Made by a program: the position numbers and the translations under genes | Source of the DNA: Alphaproteobacteria bacterium | GTDB lineage: Bacteria > Pseudomonadota > Alphaproteobacteria > Micavibrionales > UBA2020 | Reading direction: 5' to 3' | Assembly (NCBI GenBank): GCA_004297545.1 | Contig: SCTB01000123.1 | Coordinates: 20,630 to 84,629 of the forward strand | DNA length: 64,000 nt | Part shown: positions 4,270 through 56,247 of the stretch, piece by piece | Layout of the letters: each line of letters starts with the position of its first letter | Numbering within the stretch: position 1 is the first letter of the stretch | The notes under the pieces: model-generated | What the model saw: only the letters and a program-made list of their open reading frames with translations | What the model was told of the DNA's origin: nothing | Database searches by the model: none

Positions 4270-5034
4270 ATGGACATTAAAGGCTTGGCGGCGATCGTTA
4301 CGGGCGGCGGCTCGGGCATGGGCGCGGAAACCGCGCGTTATCTGGCGAAGGCCGGCGCGAAAGTCGCCGTGCTCGACATCAACAAGGCGAATGTCGAAAC
4401 GGTGGCGAAGGAAATCGGCGGCATCGGGCTTGAATGCGACGTGTCGAGCGATGCTTCGGCCAAAGCCGCGATGGAAGCCGCGCAAAAAGCGCACGGCCCC
4501 GTGCGCATCCTGATGAACTGCGCGGGCGTGGCGCCCGCCGCGCGCGTCGTGGGCAAGGAAGGCCCTCACGACCTCGGGCTGTTTTCGAAAGTCATCGGCG
4601 TGAACCTGATTGGCTCCTTCAACATGCTGCGCCTTGCGGCCGCGGAAATGTCGACGCTGGAGCCGCTTAATGATACGGGCGAGCGCGGCATCATCATCAA
4701 TACCGCGAGCGTCGCCGCCTATGAGGGCCAGATCGGCCAGGCGGCCTATGCCGCGTCGAAGGGCGGCATCGTCGGCATGACGCTGCCCGCCGCGCGCGAA
4801 CTGTCGCGCTTTGGCATCCGCGTCGTCACCATCGCGCCCGGACTTATCGGCACGCCGATGCTGCTCTCCATGCCCAAGGAAGTGCAGGACAGCCTCGTCG
4901 CCACGACCCTCTTCCCCAAGCGCCTCGGCAAGCCCGAGGAATTCGCGAAACTCGCCCTGCATATAATCGAGAATGCGATGATCAACGGCGAGACCATCCG
5001 CCTGGATGGCGCGGTGCGCCTTGCGGCAAAATAA
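4270..5034 (+). CDS. SDR-family oxidoreductase, 3-hydroxyacyl-CoA dehydrogenase type II-like
   Basis: TGGGSGMG Rossmann motif, NCAG, and catalytic YAASKGG (YxxxK). 254 aa. Confidence 0.8.
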   Translation: MDIKGLAAIVTGGGSGMGAETARYLAKAGAKVAVLDINKANVETVAKEIGGIGLECDVSSDASAKAAMEAAQKAHGPVRILMNCAGVAPAARVVGKEGPHDLGLFSKVIGVNLIGSFNMLRLAAAEMSTLEPLNDTGERGIIINTASVAAYEGQIGQAAYAASKGGIVGMTLPAARELSRFGIRVVTIAPGLIGTPMLLSMPKEVQDSLVATTLFPKRLGKPEEFAKLALHIIENAMINGETIRLDGAVRLAAK

Positions 5035-7366: not shown

Positions 7367-7394
7367 CGACGATCCCGCGCTCACGCGTATGCAC

Positions 7395-7490
7395 CACCCC
7401 GATGAAAATCGGGGTCCAGTTTATATAACTTCTACCGCTGAATATTGAGGTAGAAAATTCATATACTGGACCCCGATTTTCATCGGGGTG
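7395..7490. repeat. Nested-palindrome intergenic element (arms are themselves hairpins); possible bidirectional terminator
   Basis: Left arm caccccgatgaaaatcggggtccagtttatata. The right arm is its reverse complement with one indel. Each arm contains ccccgat-gaaa-atcgggg. Followed by gcgttttta. Confidence 0.8.
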
Positions 7491-7516
7491 GCGTTTTTAT
7501 TTGAACGACGCTCGCT

Positions 7517-12507: not shown

Positions 12508-12516
12508 CAAAACGTC

Positions 12517-12620
12517 GTCATGCCCGCCTTGCGCGGGCATCCGGAGCGTGTCTACGCGTCATATGACTCATATGCGCGGCGGACGCCACGCGCCGGATGC
12601 CCGCGCAAGGCGGGGGTGAC
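12517..12620. repeat. Nested-palindrome intergenic element (GTCATGCCCGC...GCGGGCATCCGG type)
   Basis: gtcatgcccgccttgcgcgggcatccgg ... ccggatgcccgcgcaaggcgggggtgac. Inverted arms, each a hairpin. Confidence 0.8.
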
Positions 12621-12633
12621 GGTAAGGTCTGAT

Positions 12634-19009: not shown

Positions 19010-19648
19010 ATGAAGTCCGTGCTGAAGAAACTTTTCGCGCCGGTCGCCCTTGCGCTCGCCCTGACCGGCTGCGCAGAAAATCCGCAGGATATCGCCGCCA
19101 GGCCCGCGATCGTCGATGCGATGGTCCAGAACTCGCTGGACATCTGCCAGACCGGCCTCGTCAATGCGGACAAGGCGGCCTATGAAACGCGCCTGCGCAC
19201 GGTGCTGAACGATGTGGGTCGCACGTCGAGCCTCAAGGAAATGCAAAATCACAACCTGACCGTCTGCCTCGACCAGCGCCTTGTGCACCAGAATCTCGGT
19301 TTCTGGGACCAGCATGTCAAGGCCGTCATGTACAGGGACGGCGACAAGGGCGGCATCGTCTCCCTCTATGACGACGGCCGCGCGCCGGGTGAAGTCGGCT
19401 TCTGGAGCGCGAAACCAAGCGCCTATAGCTGGGGCGCGCGCGATATCTCGCGCCTGGCGGCAAAATTCCAGGACGGTAAGATTTCAGAAAAGGACAATCT
19501 GATGTATGCCGCAAGGGAAAGCTGCGGCAAGCACTGCTCCGACATCTACTGGCGCACGCCGGCCAGCTTCGACAAGGACACGCAGGCCAAAAATCCGGAG
19601 CTGGCCAAACCGCCCGTGCCGCTGCCCGTGCAGAAACCCGCGTCCTGA
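19010..19648 (+). CDS. Lipoprotein, lineage-specific family (paralog A)
   Basis: MKSVLKKLFAPVALALALTGC lipobox. Shared blocks with 19787..20434: VCLDQRL..QNLG(F/W), GGKGG/GDKGG, FDKDT. AAGGAGG RBS. Confidence 0.7.
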   Translation: MKSVLKKLFAPVALALALTGCAENPQDIAARPAIVDAMVQNSLDICQTGLVNADKAAYETRLRTVLNDVGRTSSLKEMQNHNLTVCLDQRLVHQNLGFWDQHVKAVMYRDGDKGGIVSLYDDGRAPGEVGFWSAKPSAYSWGARDISRLAAKFQDGKISEKDNLMYAARESCGKHCSDIYWRTPASFDKDTQAKNPELAKPPVPLPVQKPAS

Positions 19649-19786: not shown

Positions 19787-20434
19787 ATGAAGGGCAGCCT
19801 GAAGAAGATATTCGCCATCGCCGCCATGGGTCTTGCGCTTGCGGGATGCGAAAGCAGGATCGACAAGGACCGCAAGGCGGACGTCGCCAGCGACATCATC
19901 CAGACTTCCGTCACCTACTGCCAGCCCGGGCCCGTCAACGGGTCCCCCGCCGATTACAGCCAGCGCCTGCGCAACATCCTGCTCGACAGCTACACCGCCG
20001 ACATGGACGTGCTGAAGCAGAATAATATTGTGGTCTGTCTCGACCAGCGCCTCACCGACCAGAATCTCGGCTGGCTCGATACGCGCATGGAAGGCGTCTA
20101 TTACAACAACGGCGGCAAGGGCGGCGTTCTGACGCTGTGGGACAACGGCAAGCCGCCCAGCTTCTGGTCCAGGGACGCCTCCGACTGGGGCAGTTCCCTC
20201 ATCCATGACTTCGCGAACCAGGTCAGGAAAGGCAAGATCAAGGCGAGCGACGCGCACTGGTACGCCTATGAAGGCTCCTACACGACCAGCTGCGGCCAAA
20301 ACTGCACGACGACCAACTACTATGTAGACTGGGTCAAGGAACAGAAATTCGACAAGGACACGATCCGGAAGAACCAGGCCATCGTGCAGGCCCCGCCGCT
20401 GAAAGCGACAGCGCCCGCCCGGCCGGGAAGCTAG
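19787..20434 (+). CDS. Lipoprotein, lineage-specific family (paralog B)
   Basis: MKGSLKKIFAIAAMGLALAGC lipobox. Same conserved blocks as 19010..19648. Confidence 0.7.
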   Translation: MKGSLKKIFAIAAMGLALAGCESRIDKDRKADVASDIIQTSVTYCQPGPVNGSPADYSQRLRNILLDSYTADMDVLKQNNIVVCLDQRLTDQNLGWLDTRMEGVYYNNGGKGGVLTLWDNGKPPSFWSRDASDWGSSLIHDFANQVRKGKIKASDAHWYAYEGSYTTSCGQNCTTTNYYVDWVKEQKFDKDTIRKNQAIVQAPPLKATAPARPGS

Positions 20435-20650: not shown

Positions 20651-22519
20651 TCAAGACGAAAGCAGGCCTTTCTCGATAGCGTGATTGAGGCGCTTCACGA
20701 AGCCGGCGGGGTCTTTCAGCGGCTCCCCTTCCACGATGCGCGCCTGGTCGAGCAGCAGGAGCGCCGTCTCGCGCAGGGTTTCGGCATTCGCGGCATTCTC
20801 TGAGAGGGTTTTCAGCCGCTGGATGACCGGGTGCTTTTCGTTGACCTCGAGGATGTGCTGGTGCTTGCCGTCGTAATGCTGGTTTTTCTTCAGAACGCGC
20901 TGCATATGGATATCCATGTCGGATTCCGGCGCGACAAGGCAGACGGGGCTGCCCACCAGGCGCTCGGACAGCGTCACGTCCTTCACTTCGTCCTTTAAAA
21001 TCTCCTTCATCTGCGACAGGAAGCCGGCCATGCCCGCCTTGGCTTTTTCGTCCCTGGGCTCTTCCTTCTTGTCCGACTTGATTTTCGACAGGTCGGCGGA
21101 GCCGCGCGTGATGGACTTGAACTTCTTCTGCTTGTAGTCGTTCTGCATCGGAATCCAGAACTCGTCGATGGTGTCGGTCATGAACAGCACCTCGATGTCC
21201 TTCGCGTTGAAGGCTTCGAGCTGCGGCGAGTGGCGCGCCGCCTCGACGGAACCGGCGGAGAGATAATAGATCTGCTCCTGCCCTTCCTTCATGCGCGAGA
21301 CGTATTCCTCCAGCGACGTCAGCCCTTCCGCTTTCGACGAATAGAACCGCGCGACGCGGGTCAGCTGGTCGCGGTACTGGTGCGCATCGTAGAGGCCTTC
21401 CTTGACCACGGGGCCGAACAGCGCCCAGAAATTCTCGAAATCCTTGATGTCGCTCTTCGCCTTTTCTTCCAGCTCGCCCAGTATCTTGCGCGTGATGGCG
21501 GTGCTCATCTTCGCGACAAGCGGGTTCGATTGCAGCATCTCGCGGCTGATGTTGAGCGGCAGGTCTTCGGAGTCCACCACGCCCTTCACGAAGCGCAGGA
21601 ACGGGGGGAGTAGCCCGTCGACGCCCTCGGTGATAAAGACGCGCTTGACGTACAATTTCGCGCTGTTCGGCCGGCGCGGATCGTAGAGGTCGAAAGGCTT
21701 CATCGCGGGGATGAACAACAGGTTGTGGTATTCGAAATTGCCCTCGGCGTGCCAGTGCAGCGTCATCCACGGCTCGTCCATCTGGATGGTGCCGGAAACG
21801 CCGCGGTAGAATTCCTTGTACTGCTCGGGCGTGATGTCTCCCTTGGGGCGCATCCATATGGCCGACGCGGTATTGACCGCGGGCGCGTCCTTCGCCTCGC
21901 CGATGACGATGGGAAAATTGATGTGGTCGGAATATTTCTTGATGACGTTCTTGAGGCGCTCCTCGATCAGGAATTCATAGGCCTCGTCCTTGAGGTGCAT
22001 CGTGATGACGGTGCCGCGCTCGTCCTTGAGGGACTCGTCGATGGTATAGGAGCCGTGGCCGTCGGAAATCCAGATCCAGCCCTTGTCGTCGCCGGCTTTC
22101 CTGCTGAGCACTTCGACTTTTGACGCGACCATGAAGACGGAATAGAAACCAACGCCGAACTGACCGATGAGGTTTGAATTCTTCTGCTTGTCGCCGTTCA
22201 GCTGCTTGACGAGCTCGCGCGTGCCCGAATGCGCGATGGTGCCCAGATTTTTGATGAGCTCCTCGCGGTTCATGCCGATGCCGTTGTCGGAAATGGTCAG
22301 CGTGCGCGCATCGGTGTCGAACCAGACGCGAATCTTGAATTCCGTGTCGCCCTTGATGAGCTCGGGCTTCGCAATCGCGTCGTAGCGCAGGCGGTCGCAG
22401 GCGTCGGACGCGTTCGAAATCAGCTCGCGCAGGAAAATCTCTTTTTCCGTGTAAAGCGCGTTCGCGACGATATCGAGCAGCCGGCTGACTTCGGCCTGGA
22501 ATTCGCGTTGTTCGGACAT
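20651..22519 (-). CDS. htpG: Molecular chaperone HtpG (Hsp90)
   Basis: MSEQREFQAEVSRLLDIVANALYTEKEIFLRELISNASDA..., IGQFGVGFYS. Start moved to ATG 22517-22519, because the upstream extension only translates a repeat element. Confidence 0.95.
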   Translation of the reverse strand: MSEQREFQAEVSRLLDIVANALYTEKEIFLRELISNASDACDRLRYDAIAKPELIKGDTEFKIRVWFDTDARTLTISDNGIGMNREELIKNLGTIAHSGTRELVKQLNGDKQKNSNLIGQFGVGFYSVFMVASKVEVLSRKAGDDKGWIWISDGHGSYTIDESLKDERGTVITMHLKDEAYEFLIEERLKNVIKKYSDHINFPIVIGEAKDAPAVNTASAIWMRPKGDITPEQYKEFYRGVSGTIQMDEPWMTLHWHAEGNFEYHNLLFIPAMKPFDLYDPRRPNSAKLYVKRVFITEGVDGLLPPFLRFVKGVVDSEDLPLNISREMLQSNPLVAKMSTAITRKILGELEEKAKSDIKDFENFWALFGPVVKEGLYDAHQYRDQLTRVARFYSSKAEGLTSLEEYVSRMKEGQEQIYYLSAGSVEAARHSPQLEAFNAKDIEVLFMTDTIDEFWIPMQNDYKQKKFKSITRGSADLSKIKSDKKEEPRDEKAKAGMAGFLSQMKEILKDEVKDVTLSERLVGSPVCLVAPESDMDIHMQRVLKKNQHYDGKHQHILEVNEKHPVIQRLKTLSENAANAETLRETALLLLDQARIVEGEPLKDPAGFVKRLNHAIEKGLLSS

Positions 22520-22549
22520 ACGATTAACACTCCTTTTCTCTCTTCTCTC

Positions 22550-22646
22550 GTCACCCCCGCGCAGGCGGGGGTCTGGCCGCGCACCTGCGCGCATTTATAA
22601 ATTGCGGCGTCGCCGCTTGCCGGATGCCCGCCTTCGCGGGCATGAC
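22550..22646. repeat. Full-length bipartite nested-palindrome element (GTCACCCCCGC hairpin - TTTATAAA core - GCCGGATGCCCGC hairpin)
   Basis: gtcacccccgcgcaggcgggggtctggcc...catttataaattgc...gccggatgcccgccttcgcgggcatgac. Same architecture at 44920..45016 and, inverted, at 48668..48765. Confidence 0.85.
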
Positions 22647-22648
22647 GG

Positions 22649-22945
22649 CTATTTGCAAATTTCCTCGTACAGGCCTTTCCAGTCTGGATTCATTCCTTCA
22701 ATCACCCTCATTTTCCATGGCCTGTTCCATTTTTTCAGTCTCTTCTCCCGCGCAATTGCTGTTTTGGGATCGGAATAAATTTCATAGTAAACGAGCTTGT
22801 TTATTCCGTACTTTTTTGTAAACCCATCTGCAACAGCGTTTTTGTGCTCCCAGGTTCGTTTTACGAGGTTAGATGTAATGCCCACGTAGAAAGTGCTGTT
22901 TCTGTCTTTTGCCAGTATATAAACATAGAATTGATCTTTTGCCAT
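22649..22945 (-). CDS. Small stand-alone GIY-YIG (URI-domain) nuclease family protein
   Basis: FYVYILAKDRNSTFYVGITSNLVKRTWEHK...AIAREKRLKKW gives the GIY..YIG, R and E motifs. 98 aa. AT-richer than flanks. Confidence 0.85.
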   Translation of the reverse strand: MAKDQFYVYILAKDRNSTFYVGITSNLVKRTWEHKNAVADGFTKKYGINKLVYYEIYSDPKTAIAREKRLKKWNRPWKMRVIEGMNPDWKGLYEEICK

Positions 22946-22975
22946 GCGTAGTCCTTTATACGCGCTATCGCGCTG

Positions 22976-23003
22976 GCCGGATGCCCGCCTTCGCGGGCAT
23001 GAC
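22976..23003. repeat. Half copy of the bipartite element; 29-bp perfect direct repeat of 22619..22647
   Basis: gccggatgcccgccttcgcgggcatgacg is identical at 22619 and 22976, in the same orientation, bracketing the GIY-YIG gene. A tttata core remnant precedes it. Confidence 0.85.
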
Positions 23004-23008
23004 GCCGA

Positions 23009-23599
23009 TCAGGGATTCAACCTTGTCATTTCCCACCCGTCTTTAAATCGGGAAAACAGGAAGCGGTCGTGCAACCGGCCTTCGCCCTCGAGCCAGAATT
23101 CTATTTTATCCGGCGCAAGGACGAAGCCGCCCCAGTGCGGCGGGCGGGGTATTTCCTGCCCCTTGAATTTCTGGGAAAAAAGCCGCACGCGTTCTTCCAG
23201 TTCGTCCCGGGTTTCCAGGGGCTCAGACTGGCGGCTGGCCCAGGCGCCGAGGCGGCTTAAGATATGCCGCGTCTTGAAATAGGCGTCCACCGCCCAGGCG
23301 GGAACTTGAGTCACCTGGCCCTCCACCCGCACCTGCCGGTGCAGGGTCTTCCAGTGGAAGCACATGGCGGCGCTTTGGTTATGTGAAAGTTCTTTCGCCT
23401 TGCGACTTTCCAGATTCGTGTAGAAGCGGAAACCTTCCTTATCCACGCCCTTGAGCAGCACCATGCGCACCGATGGCCTCCCTTCCGGCGAAACCGTAGC
23501 GAGCGCAACGGCTTCAGGGTCATTGGGTTCGGAAACGGAGGCCTCGGTCAGCCATTCCTTAAATAATTCAATCGGGTCCTGGGAGCGCAGGATTTCCAT
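23009..23599 (-). CDS. pdxH: Pyridoxamine 5'-phosphate oxidase
   Basis: RMVLLKGVDKEGFRFYTNLESRKAKEL, IEFWLEGEGRLHDRFLFSR, C-terminal RLNP. Confidence 0.9.
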   Translation of the reverse strand: MEILRSQDPIELFKEWLTEASVSEPNDPEAVALATVSPEGRPSVRMVLLKGVDKEGFRFYTNLESRKAKELSHNQSAAMCFHWKTLHRQVRVEGQVTQVPAWAVDAYFKTRHILSRLGAWASRQSEPLETRDELEERVRLFSQKFKGQEIPRPPHWGGFVLAPDKIEFWLEGEGRLHDRFLFSRFKDGWEMTRLNP

Positions 23600-35757: not shown

Positions 35758-36396
35758 TTATTTCGGCTGCGGCGGCGCGGGCGGTTTCGGCTGCGGGCGG
35801 CGCGCGATTTTATCGTTCAGATCGTCGATATCGACTTCGGCAATAATGCCGCGCGCCTTGTATTTGGGTATCTTCCAGAATTCGCGCAGGACCGCGCTGC
35901 GGAAACTGCGGTCGGAAAACCATTTGTCGCGATCCGCGCCGAAAGTATTGGGCGCCGTGAACATCTTTGTGACCGACGGCCAGTGTTTTTCCAGCGTCAT
36001 CAGGAAGCGTCGCGAGCCATGTATCTGCCCGATGCCCAGCACGGAATGGATTTTGCCGAACTCCTTCGTATTTTTCAGGAGCTGCATCGTTTCGATCACA
36101 TTCTCGCCCGTGTTCGTGGCCTTATCCTCGACGCGGATGGCGCTTTCCGGCACGCCCAGCGCGACGAGCCTGTCATGCATCTGATGGCATTCGAACGTGC
36201 CCTTGCTGGTCGGCACGCCGCCCGAGACGACGATCAGCGGAAAATAGCCCTTGTGATATAAATCCGCCGCGCGCTCCGCCAGCGCATCCGCCTGCTCGCC
36301 GCCGAACAGCAGGCACAGGTCCGCCTTCGCGAGACGCGTTTCGACGAGCATGTACTCGCCAACTTTTTTCAGGAATTCTTCCGTTAACTTTTTCAT
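35758..36396 (-). CDS. YdcF/ElyC (DUF218) family protein
   Basis: LIVVSGGVP...GVPESAIRVEDKATNTGENV signature. C-terminal tail ...RRPQPKPPAPPQPK. Confidence 0.7.
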   Translation of the reverse strand: MKKLTEEFLKKVGEYMLVETRLAKADLCLLFGGEQADALAERAADLYHKGYFPLIVVSGGVPTSKGTFECHQMHDRLVALGVPESAIRVEDKATNTGENVIETMQLLKNTKEFGKIHSVLGIGQIHGSRRFLMTLEKHWPSVTKMFTAPNTFGADRDKWFSDRSFRSAVLREFWKIPKYKARGIIAEVDIDDLNDKIARRPQPKPPAPPQPK

Positions 36397-36767
36397 TTAA
36401 TTTCCTTTGCCGAAGGCAAAGTCGTCAGTCCCCTCTCCCTCTGGGAGAGGGCTAGGGTGAGGGTACTTACAACACCCTCCAGATTGTCCTCCACTTCATT
36501 ATTCCAGAAGCGGATAACTTCATACCCAAGCTTATTAAGATATTTTGTGCGCGCCGCATCCTTCTTGCTCTCGCAATGTTGCCCGCCATCAACTTCAACG
36601 ATCAGTTTAAGTTCGAGGCATACGAAATCGGCGATGTAAGGACCAATAGGAAGCTGGCGGCGGAAGATGTACTTCAAATGATCATTGCGAAGGCAATTCC
36701 ACAACAGACACTCCGCATCTGTCTGCTCCCGTCGTAGCTTCCGCGCTCTTTGAACAGACTTTGCCAT
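36393..36767 (-). CDS. DUF559 (Vsr-like fold) endonuclease-domain protein
   Basis: RARKLRREQTDAECLLWNCLR...FRRQLPIGPYIADFVCLELKLIVEVDGGQH...KTKYLNKLGYEVIRFWNNEV. Start ATG 36765-36767. The C-terminal about 20 aa is read-through of the left arm, and the stop overlaps the ATG of 35758..36396. Confidence 0.8.
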   Translation of the reverse strand: MAKSVQRARKLRREQTDAECLLWNCLRNDHLKYIFRRQLPIGPYIADFVCLELKLIVEVDGGQHCESKKDAARTKYLNKLGYEVIRFWNNEVEDNLEGVVSTLTLALSQRERGLTTLPSAKEIK

Positions 36768-36850
36768 TTTACGTTCTTCCGTAGGTAGTACCCTCACCCT
36801 AGCCCTCCCCCAGAGGGGGAGGGGACTAACGACTTTCGCTACGCGAAAGG
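36404..36850. mobile_element. Inverted-repeat-bounded cassette carrying a DUF559 endonuclease gene (no transposase)
   Basis: The 64-bp arms at 36404-36467 and 36787-36850 are reverse complements: cctttgccgaaggcaaagtcgtcagtcccctctccctctgggagagggctagggtgagggtact versus cctttcgcgtagcgaaagtcgttagtcccctccccctctgggggagggctagggtgagggtact. Differences are compensatory within the local hairpins. The interior is AT-richer. Confidence 0.75.
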
Positions 36851-36879
36851 AAATATAATCCTTAACTTGCAGCCCTGAC

Positions 36880-43386: not shown

Positions 43387-43477
43387 CGTACTTTTCCTCA
43401 CCCTCTGGGTGAGGAAGGGGCCCGCGCCGAAGGCGTGGGAAGGTGGGGGTACTTTGTGCAGGGATTGGAATGATTGA

Positions 43478-44300: not shown

Positions 44301-44379
44301 AATTCATTGCACGGAGTACCCCCACCTTCCCGCGCTTCGCGCGGGCCCCTTCCTCCCTCAAAGGAGAGGAGAAAAAATT

Positions 44380-44810: not shown

Positions 44811-44919
44811 GGTATATCTCCCCGTATTTGGTATCGGAGTACAATGCCGTGAGTCGCGGATTCTGTCAAATGTGAAATTTTAAGAGGTTGGTTTTGTTTG
44901 ATTATTTTCAAAAATTTAC

Positions 44920-45016
44920 GTCACCCCCGCGCAGGCGGGGGACTGGCCGCCGCCGCAAGGCGGCCTTTATAAAGGCGCTTCGCGCGGGCCGGATGCCCGC
45001 CTGAAGCGGGCATGAC
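44920..45016. repeat. Full-length bipartite nested-palindrome element
   Basis: gtcacccccgcgcaggcgggggactggcc...cctttataaagg...gccggatgcccgcctgaagcgggcatgac. Ends 6 nt before the priA stop. Confidence 0.85.
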
Positions 45017-45021
45017 GAAGG

Positions 45022-48642: not shown

Positions 48643-48667
48643 GTCCAGTTATAATCACTTTATAGGC

Positions 48668-48765
48668 GTCATGCCCGCGAAGGCGGGCATCCGGCACACG
48701 GCAACGCCGCATTGATAAAAGCGCACTTTCGTGCGCTGCCAGACCCCCGCCTTCGCGGGGGTGAC
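48668..48765. repeat. Full-length bipartite nested-palindrome element (inverted orientation)
   Basis: gtcatgcccgcgaaggcgggcatccggc...attgataaaagc...ccagacccccgccttcgcgggggtgac. Confidence 0.85.
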
Positions 48766-48780
48766 GTCGAGGGGAAAGAC

Positions 48781-53343: not shown

Positions 53344-53355
53344 CATCACTCTTCT

Positions 53356-53456
53356 GTCATGCCAGCGAAAGCTGGTATCTCTGAAATTTAAAATCATCCC
53401 CGCTCCGCGGGAATGTCCCTATTAAATAGAGCGATGCCAGCTTTCGCTGGCATGAC
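53356..53456. repeat. Nested-palindrome intergenic element (GTCATGCCAGC type)
   Basis: gtcatgccagcgaaagctggtatctct ... agagcgatgccagctttcgctggcatgac, with a central hairpin tccccgc-tcc-gcgggaa. Confidence 0.8.
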
Positions 53457-53485
53457 AATATATCCGGGGTGAAGTTCGGGATAGC

Positions 53486-55560: not shown

Positions 55561-56243
55561 CTCTCCTCCCCTTTGGGGGAGGAAGGGGCCCGCACGAAGT
55601 GCGGGAAGGTGGGGGGTACTCCGTGCAACAGAGTGGCTGGTTAGAAGTTTAAATCACGACTGAACACGAATGCTCATGAGTCTTCTGAGTGTCAATGCTT
55701 CTTCCGAAAAATCGAGCTCATTTTGCGCTTTTTGGCCCGTGCAATATTAGCAACCACGCTTCGTACAGCTTCGCCAATGTGCAGGGCAATAAACTACGTG
55801 CCCATTGTCTTTTGTGTTTTTTAGTATCGTTGAAGTTTAACTCCTCGACAAACGAAACATCGATTGCATTTTTTAAATCATCATTACCGTTTTCGTAGGC
55901 CCACTCTGCCAACTTATACGCTTTTGTCACTTGCTCCCGGTCACCAGAATCTATCAGCTGTTGCACTAATCTGCGAAAGACCGCCATTTCAAAATGAAGT
56001 AAACCTTGTTCCTTGTTGATTTCCAGCTCAACTGCGGGAAATGTTGCCTTTAGCTGTTTGAGAAATTCACTCCTATGGACTTTTGTCATTTTTTCCGGCG
56101 CCCCCGCCCGTTTTCCACAATCTACTTTATCATTCATTCATTTTTATTCGTAGTTCAAACTATTCACTATCTATGTAACTTCACAGAGTACCCCCACCTT
56201 CCCGCACTTCGTGCGGGCCCCTTCCTCCCCCAAAGGGGAGGAG
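55561..56243. mobile_element. Inverted-repeat-bounded cassette carrying one AT-rich orphan gene (no transposase)
   Basis: Left arm: ctctcctcccctttgggggaggaaggggcccgcacgaagtgcgggaaggtggggggtactccgtg. Reverse complement of right arm: atctcctcccctttgggggaggaaggggcccgcacgaagtgcgggaaggtgggggtactctgtg. Only 2 differences. Fills the gap between two convergent stops. Confidence 0.8.
55718..56089 (-). CDS. Hypothetical helical protein (123 aa), cassette cargo; immunity-protein-like by context only
   Basis: MTKVHRSEFLKQLKATFPAVELEINKEQGLLHFEMAVFRRLVQQLIDSGD...NAIDVSFVEELNF. Markedly AT-rich. An alternative upstream ATG at 56137 exists. Confidence 0.5.
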   Translation of the reverse strand: MTKVHRSEFLKQLKATFPAVELEINKEQGLLHFEMAVFRRLVQQLIDSGDREQVTKAYKLAEWAYENGNDDLKNAIDVSFVEELNFNDTKKHKRQWARSLLPCTLAKLYEAWLLILHGPKSAK

Positions 56244-56247
56244 ATTC

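Follow-up and report, generated by a model that had tools for sequence, protein, structure and literature searches.

Introduction

Ssn proteins, whose prototype is SsnA of Neisseria meningitidis, recognize a hairpin if the DNA that carries it is single-stranded, and not otherwise; the cut falls a few nucleotides to its 5' side, and the ssn genes are typically flanked by the same motif (Chenal et al., 2025, Nat Commun; PMC11893778). The family corresponds to the GIY-YIG group cd10448 (GIY-YIG_unchar_3) of CDD. In that work the GTC 5' of the palindrome was critical for cutting and the C 3' of the palindrome for binding, and when the palindrome was changed but the hairpin kept, NmSsnA activity was abolished. 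The residues mutated in NmSsnA were Y6, Y17 and E64, homology to SsnA was set at blastp E < 1e-10 with coverage of at least 75%, and the idea was raised that the hairpin-gene-hairpin unit is like an insertion sequence (PMC11893778). The hairpin motif, the SRM (Ssn-related motif), is the NTS or dRS3 repeat of Neisseria and the CGTC-1 REP of alphaproteobacteria. CGTC-1 REPs were described in Micavibrio aeruginosavorus, Rickettsia (RPE-6) and Neisseria (dRS3), and no dedicated protein or transposase was found for CGTC REPs (Di Nocera et al., BMC Genomics 2013; PMC3733652). The CGTC-REP and Ssn literatures appear to be without cross-reference, and the locus described here connects the two.

This locus lies in a 64-kb window (the whole stretch of DNA that was analyzed) and carries a small GIY-YIG gene, here called ssn, between htpG and pdxH. 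An initial annotation had connected this free-standing nuclease gene to a family of repeats. The nuclease-hairpin association was correctly observed, but it belongs to a system already known (published in 2025). The question on which the locus bears is whether Ssn and its hairpins are domesticated or form an active mobile system.

Layout of the locus

The genes run in the order pdxH, ssn, htpG, with all three on the minus strand. The features of the locus, in window coordinates, are:

20651..22519, minus strand: htpG, the downstream neighbor, encoding HSP90 (PF00183)
22549..22576, plus strand: distal SRM hairpin of the downstream dimer, CGTCACCCCCGCGCAGGCGGGGGTCTGG, of the second stem type and inverted relative to the other two
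22577..22619, no strand: dimer spacer, two inner hairpins around a TTTATAAA core (22594-22601), from the fold
22620..22647, minus strand: proximal downstream SRM hairpin, half of the dimer, forward on the ssn coding strand
22649..22945, minus strand: ssn, encoding an Ssn-family nuclease of 98 aa with a single GIY-YIG domain; Y9, Y20 and E67 are the predicted catalytic residues
22946..22976, minus strand: leader from the upstream SRM to the ssn ATG, a small inner hairpin (about 22962-22973) and then TATAAAGGA, from sequence and fold
22977..23004, minus strand: upstream SRM hairpin, CGTCATGCCCGCGAAGGCGGGCATCCGG, a match to the published SRM pattern and an exact copy of 22620-22647
23009..23599, minus strand: pdxH, the upstream neighbor, with PNPOx_N (PF01243) and PNP_phzG_C (PF10590)

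Read along the coding strand, the pdxH stop codon is followed by a forward SRM, a small hairpin, TATAAAGGA, ssn, a second forward SRM, the spacer, an inverted SRM and htpG. The upstream SRM, forward on the ssn coding strand, begins 4 nt past the pdxH stop codon, the CGTC of the proximal downstream SRM begins 1 nt past the ssn stop codon, and the distal SRM ends 27 nt before the htpG start codon. The ssnA gene of N. gonorrhoeae likewise has its stop codon followed by 1-2 nt and CGTCAT, as do the genes of the relatives L001 and L081. Upstream of ssn, TATAAAGGA (22952-22960) includes an AAGGA Shine-Dalgarno-like motif with 6 nt to the ATG, and the leader part CATCCGG..CGTATAA is kept in L081 and L001. 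A promoter and terminator scan of 22400-23150 returned no promoter-like site and nothing above shuffled expectation; ssn may be transcribed by read-through from pdxH.

The true htpG start is the ATG at 22519, as the MSEQREF start is common to L001, L081 and L083, whilst the longer listed htpG ORF (647 aa) runs through the SRM dimer. This ORF is one example of why neighboring ORFs should not be extended through the hairpins, and ORFs such as the 98-aa one should be named Ssn-family nucleases.

The protein encoded by ssn

A Pfam search matched PF01541 (GIY-YIG) to residues 6-79 of the 98-aa protein (E 3.7e-16). As the reference for SsnA homology we used the N. gonorrhoeae orthologue (L082:598-882, 94 aa), standing in for N. 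meningitidis SsnA, and the two proteins were 46% identical over 93 aa in an ungapped alignment (E 2e-33). The protein is thus an SsnA homolog by the definition of the Ssn study, tested against this orthologue, and at 98 aa it lies within the size given for Ssn proteins (single-domain GIY-YIG, <150 aa). The record from which the orthologue was taken is a chromosome mislabelled as a plasmid in PLSDB.

Y6, Y17 and E64 of the orthologue align with Y9, Y20 and E67 of the 98-aa protein, and the equivalent positions were invariant in 38 homologs. The AF2 model (pLDDT 90) has a GIY-YIG fold, with GIY-YIG proteins as its best fold matches. Judged by its sequence, the small protein between htpG and pdxH is an Ssn-family member. 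An exact-protein look-up of the 98-aa sequence found no identical protein on record, and phmmer found no sequence-level match among PDB chains. In NCBIfam, which is without a model for the Ssn family, the only match, to TIGR01453 (group I intron endonuclease), fell well below threshold at 20 bits versus a cut-off of 56. No ssn homolog was found by tblastn among 50,697 phage records, and the plasmid matches were mostly chromids or mislabelled chromosomes.

As first noticed in the initial annotation, ssn is AT-richer than its surroundings, with a GC content of about 0.40 versus about 0.59-0.62 in the flanks. This is a family-wide property, seen in 81/83 loci, and the GC content of the gene tracks that of the host (r = 0.87). 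The low GC was accordingly not taken to indicate a recent transfer of ssn.

The flanking hairpins and their copies in the window

The direct repeat that had been reported around the gene is exact: GCCGGATGCCCGCCTTCGCGGGCATGACG (29 nt) occurs at 22619-22647 and at 22976-23004, both on the plus strand, and no copies of it are expected in shuffles. Similarity between the flanking copies extends to 36/39 nt. The upstream SRM folds into an 8-bp stem with a 4-nt loop, and downstream of the gene the bipartite element (22549-22647) has a left and a right hairpin at its ends and two inner hairpins with TTTATAAA between them. The right half of this element, with part of the TTTATA core, had been taken to be duplicated on the far side of the gene. 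A second TTTATA does lie ahead of the second 29-mer copy, at 22956-22961, but the stretch that separates TTTATA from the 29-mer is of different length in the two places (19 nt versus 15 nt) and unrelated in sequence. This makes the "duplicated half" a pair of distinct family members and not one copied segment.

All three hairpins of the locus match the published SRM pattern HGTCWYN(0-2)YYVSBRHN(0-5)WNVSBRGN(0-2)RNCYNB, and with this degenerate pattern an SRM is found within 500 bp on both the 5' and the 3' side of ssn. They read CGTC-stem-loop-stem-C(C/T)GG and carry both the GTC that precedes the stem and the C that follows it. Two stem types, ATGCCCGC and ACCCCCGC, occur at this one ssn gene. 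The first has the CGTC-1 REP layout, CGTC/ATGCCCGC/GAAG/GCGGGCAT/CCGG, and the stem of the second starts with A-C; tails at this locus read CCGG or CTGG, compared with CCA in the CGTC-1 consensus.

A third exact 29-mer lies at 48667-48695 on the minus strand, 25 kb away, within one of the four further elements in the window:

12516..12621, plus strand: SRM dimer with 5-nt loops
44919..45017, plus strand: heterodimer element copy, with layout and fold as at the ssn locus
48667..48766, plus strand: heterodimer element copy between a DUF484 gene and xerC, containing the third exact 29-mer
53355..53457, plus strand: divergent SRM dimer, TGTC tag, stem ATGCCAGC

The window holds three dimers of one layout, and the spacer layout is also seen in L001 and L081. 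Enrichment, measured over the 64-kb window alone, was 8 matches to the SRM pattern versus a mean of 0.24 in 50 shuffles. The published pattern misses many 5-nt-loop variants and we therefore added a looser detector (8-bp stem plus GTC tag). Across 192 hairpins all four Watson-Crick pairs were found at stem position 3.

Homologous loci across phyla

Gene and hairpin are associated well beyond this genome. A CGTC- or TGTC-tagged hairpin lies within 200 nt of the gene in 69/78 homologous loci from many phyla; the background density is 0.18 hairpins per kb, so that the motif is enriched >20-fold around ssn homologs. This bears out the proposed link between a free-standing nuclease and the repeat family, as does the published biochemistry of homologs (PMC11893778). 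The commonest arrangement is a forward hairpin upstream with an inverted one downstream (32 loci), and the pattern of the present locus, with a forward-plus-inverted dimer downstream, was found in 13 loci. Same-orientation runs of the motif that enclose no gene also exist, L026, L036 and L075 being examples. N-terminal extensions of miscalled homologs, MPAKAGI and DPRLRGDD among them, are translated hairpins.

In other Micavibrio-like genomes ssn occurs in different contexts, with several copies in some (L002/L012, L005). At L035 a 697-nt unit that includes the flanking SRMs is duplicated at 90% identity.

History of the module at the pdxH-htpG site

ssn is syntenic at the pdxH-htpG site in three relatives, giving four genomes in all (for the P0002 contig only gene order was used). 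In comparisons of the window with L081, its sister, and with L001, dS was >4 for ssn and 1.2-1.4 for pdxH, meaning that synonymous sites are saturated, and dN/dS for ssn was 0.01-0.03. Despite this saturation the downstream SRM differs between the window and L081 at 2/29 positions. The upstream hairpin, intact and identical to the downstream one in the window, is partly deleted in both L081 and L001, where its 3' part is kept and ssn is intact. In L001 the downstream dimer lies in flipped orientation, and at the DUF484-xerC site near relatives carry dimers of different stem subtypes.

Two relatives have empty sites. In L083, the closer of the two, the pdxH-htpG spacer is 51 nt long and has neither ssn nor hairpin; in L084 it is 148 nt long, with no ssn and no CGTC-tagged hairpin. 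Filled and empty spacers were too diverged for insertion junctions or a target duplication to be defined from their comparison. In an HtpG plus PdxH tree, built with regard to gain versus loss, the alternative positions of L083 relative to L001 received bootstrap values of 90 versus 79 of 200.

From these data, ssn already occupied the pdxH-htpG site when L081 and L001 split off, and gain or loss in this spacer, within the Micavibrio-like lineage, affected the module (about 440 nt) in one piece. The module has since been vertically inherited under strong purifying selection. Three observations bear on mobility: the module comes and goes as a unit, the hairpins stay near-constant while neutral sites saturate, and dimers are flipped or replaced at orthologous sites.

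Discussion

The ORF very probably encodes an Ssn-family nuclease specific for ssDNA, with the 29-nt repeats as its predicted cognate hairpins. We infer its cleavage chemistry and cellular role from the characterized homologs. If the protein behaves as four of these do, it would bind the hairpin, with its 5' GTC tag and 3' C, only when single-stranded, and would then cut a few nucleotides 5' of the tag, with no cut of dsDNA, RNA or the complementary strand. Candidate roles would be the restriction or processing of ssDNA, or the spread of the hairpins. The direct repeat is a pair of SRMs that face the same way: the first lies upstream of the gene, and the second is the proximal half of the downstream heterodimer, a standard element of about 100 nt that is probably scattered through the genome. 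Identity of the flanking copies probably comes from sequence constraint, or from homogenization within the SRM family, and not from an insertion footprint. Identity of the protein to the characterized enzymes is only about 46%. Co-evolved specificity must also be assumed, because the ATGCCCGC and ACCCCCGC stems differ from the Neisseria stem ATTCCCGC and a palindrome change abolishes NmSsnA activity.

It is possible, but in our judgment unlikely, that ssn and its flanking hairpins together make up a mobile element, active and autonomous, with a new mechanism, the dimers being its non-autonomous derivatives as in RAYT/REPIN. Ssn would cut 5' of the two same-strand SRMs and free the 357-nt SRM plus gene as ssDNA, which host functions would reinsert. 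Presence and absence of the module at one orthologous site would fit such an element, as would the varied contexts and multiple copies of ssn in Micavibrio-like genomes, the duplicated L035 unit, the flipped dimer of L001 and the differing stem subtypes at DUF484-xerC. However, GIY-YIG enzymes hydrolyze DNA with no covalent intermediate, and so we know of no strand-transfer activity in the superfamily. The stable synteny in four genomes and the strong purifying selection fit a resident host gene equally well, and the phage and plasmid searches also speak against mobility. The initial annotation had suggested a minimal selfish element; the coming and going of the module as a unit agrees with this, but neither a target-site duplication nor defined ends are demonstrable at the ssn locus. 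Were the mobile reading true, the CGTC REP superfamily would have its "missing transposase" in Ssn, and DNA transposition would have a further, new route; that these REPs were reported with no dedicated transposase (PMC3733652) is in its favor, as is the analogy to insertion sequences already raised (PMC11893778).

We also regard as improbable that recombination trapped the gene between two copies of the element, the alternative given in the initial annotation, or that the upstream copy was re-created from the downstream one by gene conversion. Conversion or repair from a nearby copy would fit the intact, identical upstream SRM of the window beside the 3' remnants in L081 and L001, and the flipped L001 dimer indicates that recombination does act on these elements. 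On the other hand, a single restoration is no more parsimonious than two separate decays, and flanking SRMs are the rule across the family. As the remnants in L081 and L001 show that the upstream SRM is ancestral, no capture event is needed.

The leading proposal of the initial annotation, in which the gene homed to a lone hairpin element already in place and the 29-nt direct repeat is the target-site duplication, is very unlikely. Its attractions were the two perfect copies in the same orientation adjoining the gene, the AT-richness of the gene and, with the relatives now compared, the absence of the module from the spacers of L083 and L084. Yet the low GC is family-wide, and a single-element empty site, proposed as a check, was not what the relatives had to offer, as neither empty spacer holds a single target copy. 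The third identical 29-mer and the related copies elsewhere in the window show that the sequence is not peculiar to the gene, and the hairpins are 29/29 identical while the 15-19 nt beside them are unrelated. Age is a further objection: ssn predates a split across which synonymous sites are saturated, and a neutral duplication could not have remained 29/29 identical over that time. The decay of the upstream copy in L081 and L001 beside an intact gene likewise goes against homing, as do the commonest family arrangement, which is inverted and not direct, and the same-orientation runs with no gene. Target-site duplication is in large part refuted. Chance co-location of an unrelated GIY-YIG gene with generic REP-type terminators or mRNA stabilizers, to which the hairpins directly after the pdxH and ssn stop codons (as REPs often are) and the want of a detected promoter or canonical terminator might point, is refuted by the cross-phylum enrichment and by the direct, sequence-specific recognition shown for homologs (PMC11893778).

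Comparison with known systems

The GIY-YIG homing endonucleases (I-TevI, and Seg and Mob of T-even phages) share with ssn the GIY-YIG domain and a gene that is present or absent at its site. They are borne by phages or introns, have an extra DNA-binding domain and cut dsDNA at long asymmetric sites, whereas the 98-aa protein is the catalytic domain alone and its homologs cut only ssDNA at a hairpin. The solved folds nearest to the model are UPF0213 (BH0048, PDB 1ZG2) and the Slx1 nuclease domain; at only about 22-26% identity, these are members of other GIY-YIG subfamilies, and Slx1, a structure-specific enzyme, has an added RING domain.

With RAYT/REPIN the locus has in common a small nuclease gene flanked by hairpins, recognition of the repeats as ssDNA (predicted for the protein here), inverted doublets spread through intergenic regions and a gene that is largely vertically inherited. 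RAYT is an HUH tyrosine transposase of the IS200/IS605 family that forms a covalent tyrosine intermediate, in contrast to hydrolysis by GIY-YIG proteins of unrelated fold; the tag is CGTC or TGTC here versus GTAG, and mobilization of the repeats by the GIY-YIG protein is only putative. Identity as a REPtron (RAYT with REPs) was rejected because the protein is GIY-YIG and not HUH and the tag is not GTAG.

The hairpins resemble CGTC-1 REPs in their CGTC tag, 8-bp stem starting A-T, 4-nt loop and short tail, and in occurring mostly as dimers with structured spacers (PMC3733652). Unlike the CGTC-1 REPs as described there, those at this locus have an associated protein, the product of the GIY-YIG gene, as in the Ssn study.

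The Ssn/NTS systems are the closest match. They share a single-domain GIY-YIG protein of 94-98 aa with matching catalytic Tyr, Tyr and Glu, a CGTC tag, an 8-bp stem AT.CCCGC, a 4-nt loop and the tail CC(R)G, and a motif that flanks the gene on both sides and is scattered in intergenic regions. Unlike the Neisseria NTS, which has T:A at stem position 3, the stem here has G:C, and in the second type positions 2 and 3 are both C:G. The motifs here are also arranged as a heterodimer of four hairpins, conserved and about 100 nt long, around a TTTATAAA core, and the host is an uncultured Micavibrio-like alphaproteobacterium. The locus thereby adds an Ssn member from an uncultured Micavibrio-like predator lineage.

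Organization of the ssn locus and its repeats

The window carries a 98-aa ORF with a GIY-YIG domain (Pfam, E 3.7e-16), here called ssn, which lies between two exact copies of the 29-mer GCCGGATGCCCGCCTTCGCGGGCATGACG in the gene order pdxH, ssn, htpG. A third exact copy lies on the opposite strand, none being expected by chance (100 shuffles). Similarity around the two flanking copies reaches 36/39 nt. A bipartite element, which folds into four hairpins round a TTTATAAA core, adjoins ssn downstream and occurs twice more.

20651-22519, minus strand: htpG, with its conserved start ATG at 22519 (MSEQREF)
22549-22647: bipartite element downstream of ssn
22619-22647: 29-mer, flanking copy
22649-22945, minus strand: ssn
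22976-23004: 29-mer, flanking copy
23009-23599, minus strand: pdxH
44919-45017: bipartite element
48667-48766: bipartite element
48667-48695, opposite strand: 29-mer, third exact copy
12516-12621: further dimer
53355-53457: further dimer

The GC content of ssn is 0.40, compared with 0.59-0.62 in its surroundings, and its GC3 is 0.47 (htpG 0.85, pdxH 0.71). The region is as the initial annotation described it, in its exact repeats, ORF, neighbors, lower GC and bipartite element. The longest htpG ORF (647 aa, start 22594) runs through the dimer and acquires a spurious N-terminus (..DPRLRGGD..) at 22520-22594; false N-terminal extensions, for example MPAKAGI and IPALCG, are likewise found in several database Ssn homologs. 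Just downstream of htpG are two adjacent paralogous lipoprotein-like genes (19010-19648 and 19787-20434; 212 and 215 aa), similar in sequence and with signal-peptide-like N-termini.

Identity of the hairpins

Each hairpin opens with CGTC and closes with CCGG or CTGG; in between, the two arms of an 8-bp stem (ATGCCCGC or ACCCCCGC) enclose a 4-nt loop. These are repetitive extragenic palindromes (REPs) of the CGTC-1 class as defined by Di Nocera et al. (2013), which are known from Micavibrio aeruginosavorus, Rickettsia and Neisseria (there named dRS3) and mostly form dimers with structured spacers (PMC3733652). They also fit the degenerate Ssn-related motif (SRM) of Chenal et al. (2025; PMC11893778): the window has eight matches where 0.24 would be expected, and the ssn locus accounts for three. 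Across 192 hairpins of the homologous loci, stem position 3 was occupied by T:A (92), C:G (62), G:C (26) and A:T (6) pairs; the presence of all four Watson-Crick pairs with few mismatches supports a requirement for the hairpin.

Other palindromic elements were seen in the window. At 36395-36859, 73-nt inverted repeats (86% complementary), each holding a hairpin CCCCTCTCCC-TCT-GGGAGAGGG, bracket a minus-strand ORF (~36470-36790) that encodes a DUF559 protein (Vsr-like nuclease fold; Pfam, E 3.3e-38). Here too a nuclease may be paired with palindromes of its own that flank its gene. An unrelated 54-63-nt family with two hairpins (CCCCCACCTTCCCGCACTTCGTGCGGGCCCCTTCCTCCCCCAAAGGGGAGGAGA) is represented by three or more full copies (44310-44372 and 56182-56244, plus strand; 55562-55615, minus strand), of which two are 100% complementary, and by a partial copy at 43401-43460. 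The element at 7394-7491, with 43-nt arms carrying CCCCGATGAAAATCGGGG hairpins and a TTTATATAAC core, resembles the SRM dimer in layout but lacks the CGTC tag.

The Ssn protein and its association with hairpins

SsnA of N. meningitidis is a 94-aa single-domain GIY-YIG protein (CDD family cd10448) that binds the motif CGTCATTCCCGCGMAVGCGGGAATCYRG in single-stranded DNA only and cuts a few nt 5' of it; three more homologs behaved in the same way, and the Neisseria enzyme restricts transforming single-stranded DNA that bears the motif (Chenal et al., PMC11893778). For comparison we used the 94-aa N. gonorrhoeae ortholog, from a chromosome filed among plasmids. (PLSDB entries NZ_CP119140.1 and NZ_CP119142.1 are N. 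gonorrhoeae sequences of ~2.17 Mb, labeled plasmids, nearly unannotated and evidently chromosomes.) Alignment of the window protein with the N. gonorrhoeae ortholog needed no gaps and gave 46% identity (E 2e-33); Y9, Y20 and E67 matched Y6, Y17 and E64, which were mutated in PMC11893778, and these positions were invariant across 38 homologs. An AlphaFold model built on the homolog alignment was confident (pLDDT 90), its closest solved folds being UPF0213, Slx1 and the UvrC N-terminal GIY-YIG domain. No Ssn structure was found in the PDB set searched.

Homologs number in the thousands, at 55-89% identity and in many phyla. Over 80 genome loci (L001-L080), alphaproteobacterial proteins are still 55-60% identical to those of Planctomycetota, Acidobacteriota, Cyanobacteria or Bacteroidota. 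In 78 usable loci we searched for GTC-tagged hairpins with an 8-bp stem no more than 200 nt from the gene. Such a hairpin was present in 69 of them, against a background of 0.18 per kb in the same loci, which bears out the proposed link between nuclease and repeat family. The most frequent layout was a forward motif upstream with an inverted one downstream (32 loci), while 13 loci had a forward-plus-inverted dimer downstream, as in the window. Only 1-2 nt separate the stop codon from the forward motif in the window, in N. gonorrhoeae and in two related loci, L001 and L081. The gene was lower in GC than its flanks in 81/83 loci (mean deficit 0.105) and tracked host GC (r = 0.87). AT-richness is thus a property of the whole family, which could stem from amino-acid composition, low expression or repeated exchange.

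History of the pdxH-htpG site

The order pdxH-ssn-htpG is common to L001 (HtpG 88%, PdxH 85% and Ssn 78% identical to the window), L081 (91%, 86% and 89%) and the contig P0002. In two other relatives, L083 (84% and 88%) and L084 (65% and 73%), pdxH is followed by htpG without ssn, with spacers of 51 nt, free of hairpins, and 148 nt, respectively. A tree of HtpG and PdxH grouped the window with L081 and did not order L001 against L083, so that a single gain or a later clean loss would each fit. Whether gained or lost, the ~440-nt module of hairpins and gene differs between relatives as a unit.

Both L081 and L001 have a partly deleted upstream hairpin (remnant ..CATCCGG..CGTATAA), with gene and downstream dimer intact. 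The L001 dimer (4290-4400, against window 22545-22652) is the same heterodimer, inverted end to end at the orthologous position; there, too, the ssn stop codon directly adjoins a forward CGTC hairpin. Strong purifying selection acts on ssn (dN/dS 0.01-0.03, synonymous sites saturated; pdxH dS 1.2-1.4). The downstream hairpin differs between window and L081 at just 2/29 positions despite that saturation, and so is constrained or homogenized.

The SRM dimer in the DUF484-xerC spacer differs in stem subtype among the window, L163 and the genome of L001.

Dimers in the DUF484-xerC spacer
Window 48643-48779: stems ATGCCCGC/ACCCCCGC
L163:3694-3912: stem ACCCCGCC
L165:5694-5903: stem ACCCCGGC

The DUF484 proteins of L163 and the window share 97% identity, yet their dimers differ, which suggests that dimers are replaced or undergo fast compensatory change. 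Both the L163 contig and that of L164 stop within or just past the dimer.

The motif-gene-motif layout has been likened to an insertion sequence (PMC11893778), and turnover of the SRM-ssn unit fits with its presence or absence at one site, the dimer subtypes, the flipped L001 dimer, the two ssn copies of some genomes (L002 and L012 on one contig, two in L005) and the 697-nt unit, hairpins included, duplicated at 90% identity in L035. We nevertheless consider active mobility unlikely: synteny is stable, the gene is under purifying selection, no defined ends or target-site duplication were found, no phage-borne copy turned up among 50,697 phage records, and the enzyme is hydrolytic, with no known strand-transfer step. 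The initial proposal that the gene homed into a hairpin and duplicated its target as the 29-nt repeat was rejected, since the 29-mer belongs to a family and recurs identically elsewhere (48667-48695), the sequences adjoining the two copies differ, a neutral duplication of that age would no longer be perfect, L081 and L001 do without an intact upstream copy, and the empty site in relatives holds no target hairpin.

Predicted activity and relation to known systems

By analogy with its homologs, the protein would recognize the hairpin on single-stranded DNA and cleave immediately 5' of its CGTC tag. For this locus, that predicts coding-strand cuts beside the pdxH and ssn stop codons and a further, opposite-strand cut immediately beyond the distal hairpin near htpG.

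The data place the protein in the Ssn family, match its hairpins to the motif, and document the recurrent association, covariation within hairpins and constraint on both gene and motif. The system is of a kind already known: an Ssn nuclease and its cognate SRM (CGTC-1 REP) hairpins. What it chiefly offers is comparative detail on the module and an explicit bridge between work on CGTC REPs and work on Ssn. Those two literatures appear mutually uncited, since Chenal et al. is missing from the papers searched that contain "CGTC-tagged". With the published SRM pattern, 66% of our loci had at least one motif and 31% had motifs on both sides, close to the 71% and 42% reported for Ssn homologs by Chenal et al. 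(PMC11893778).
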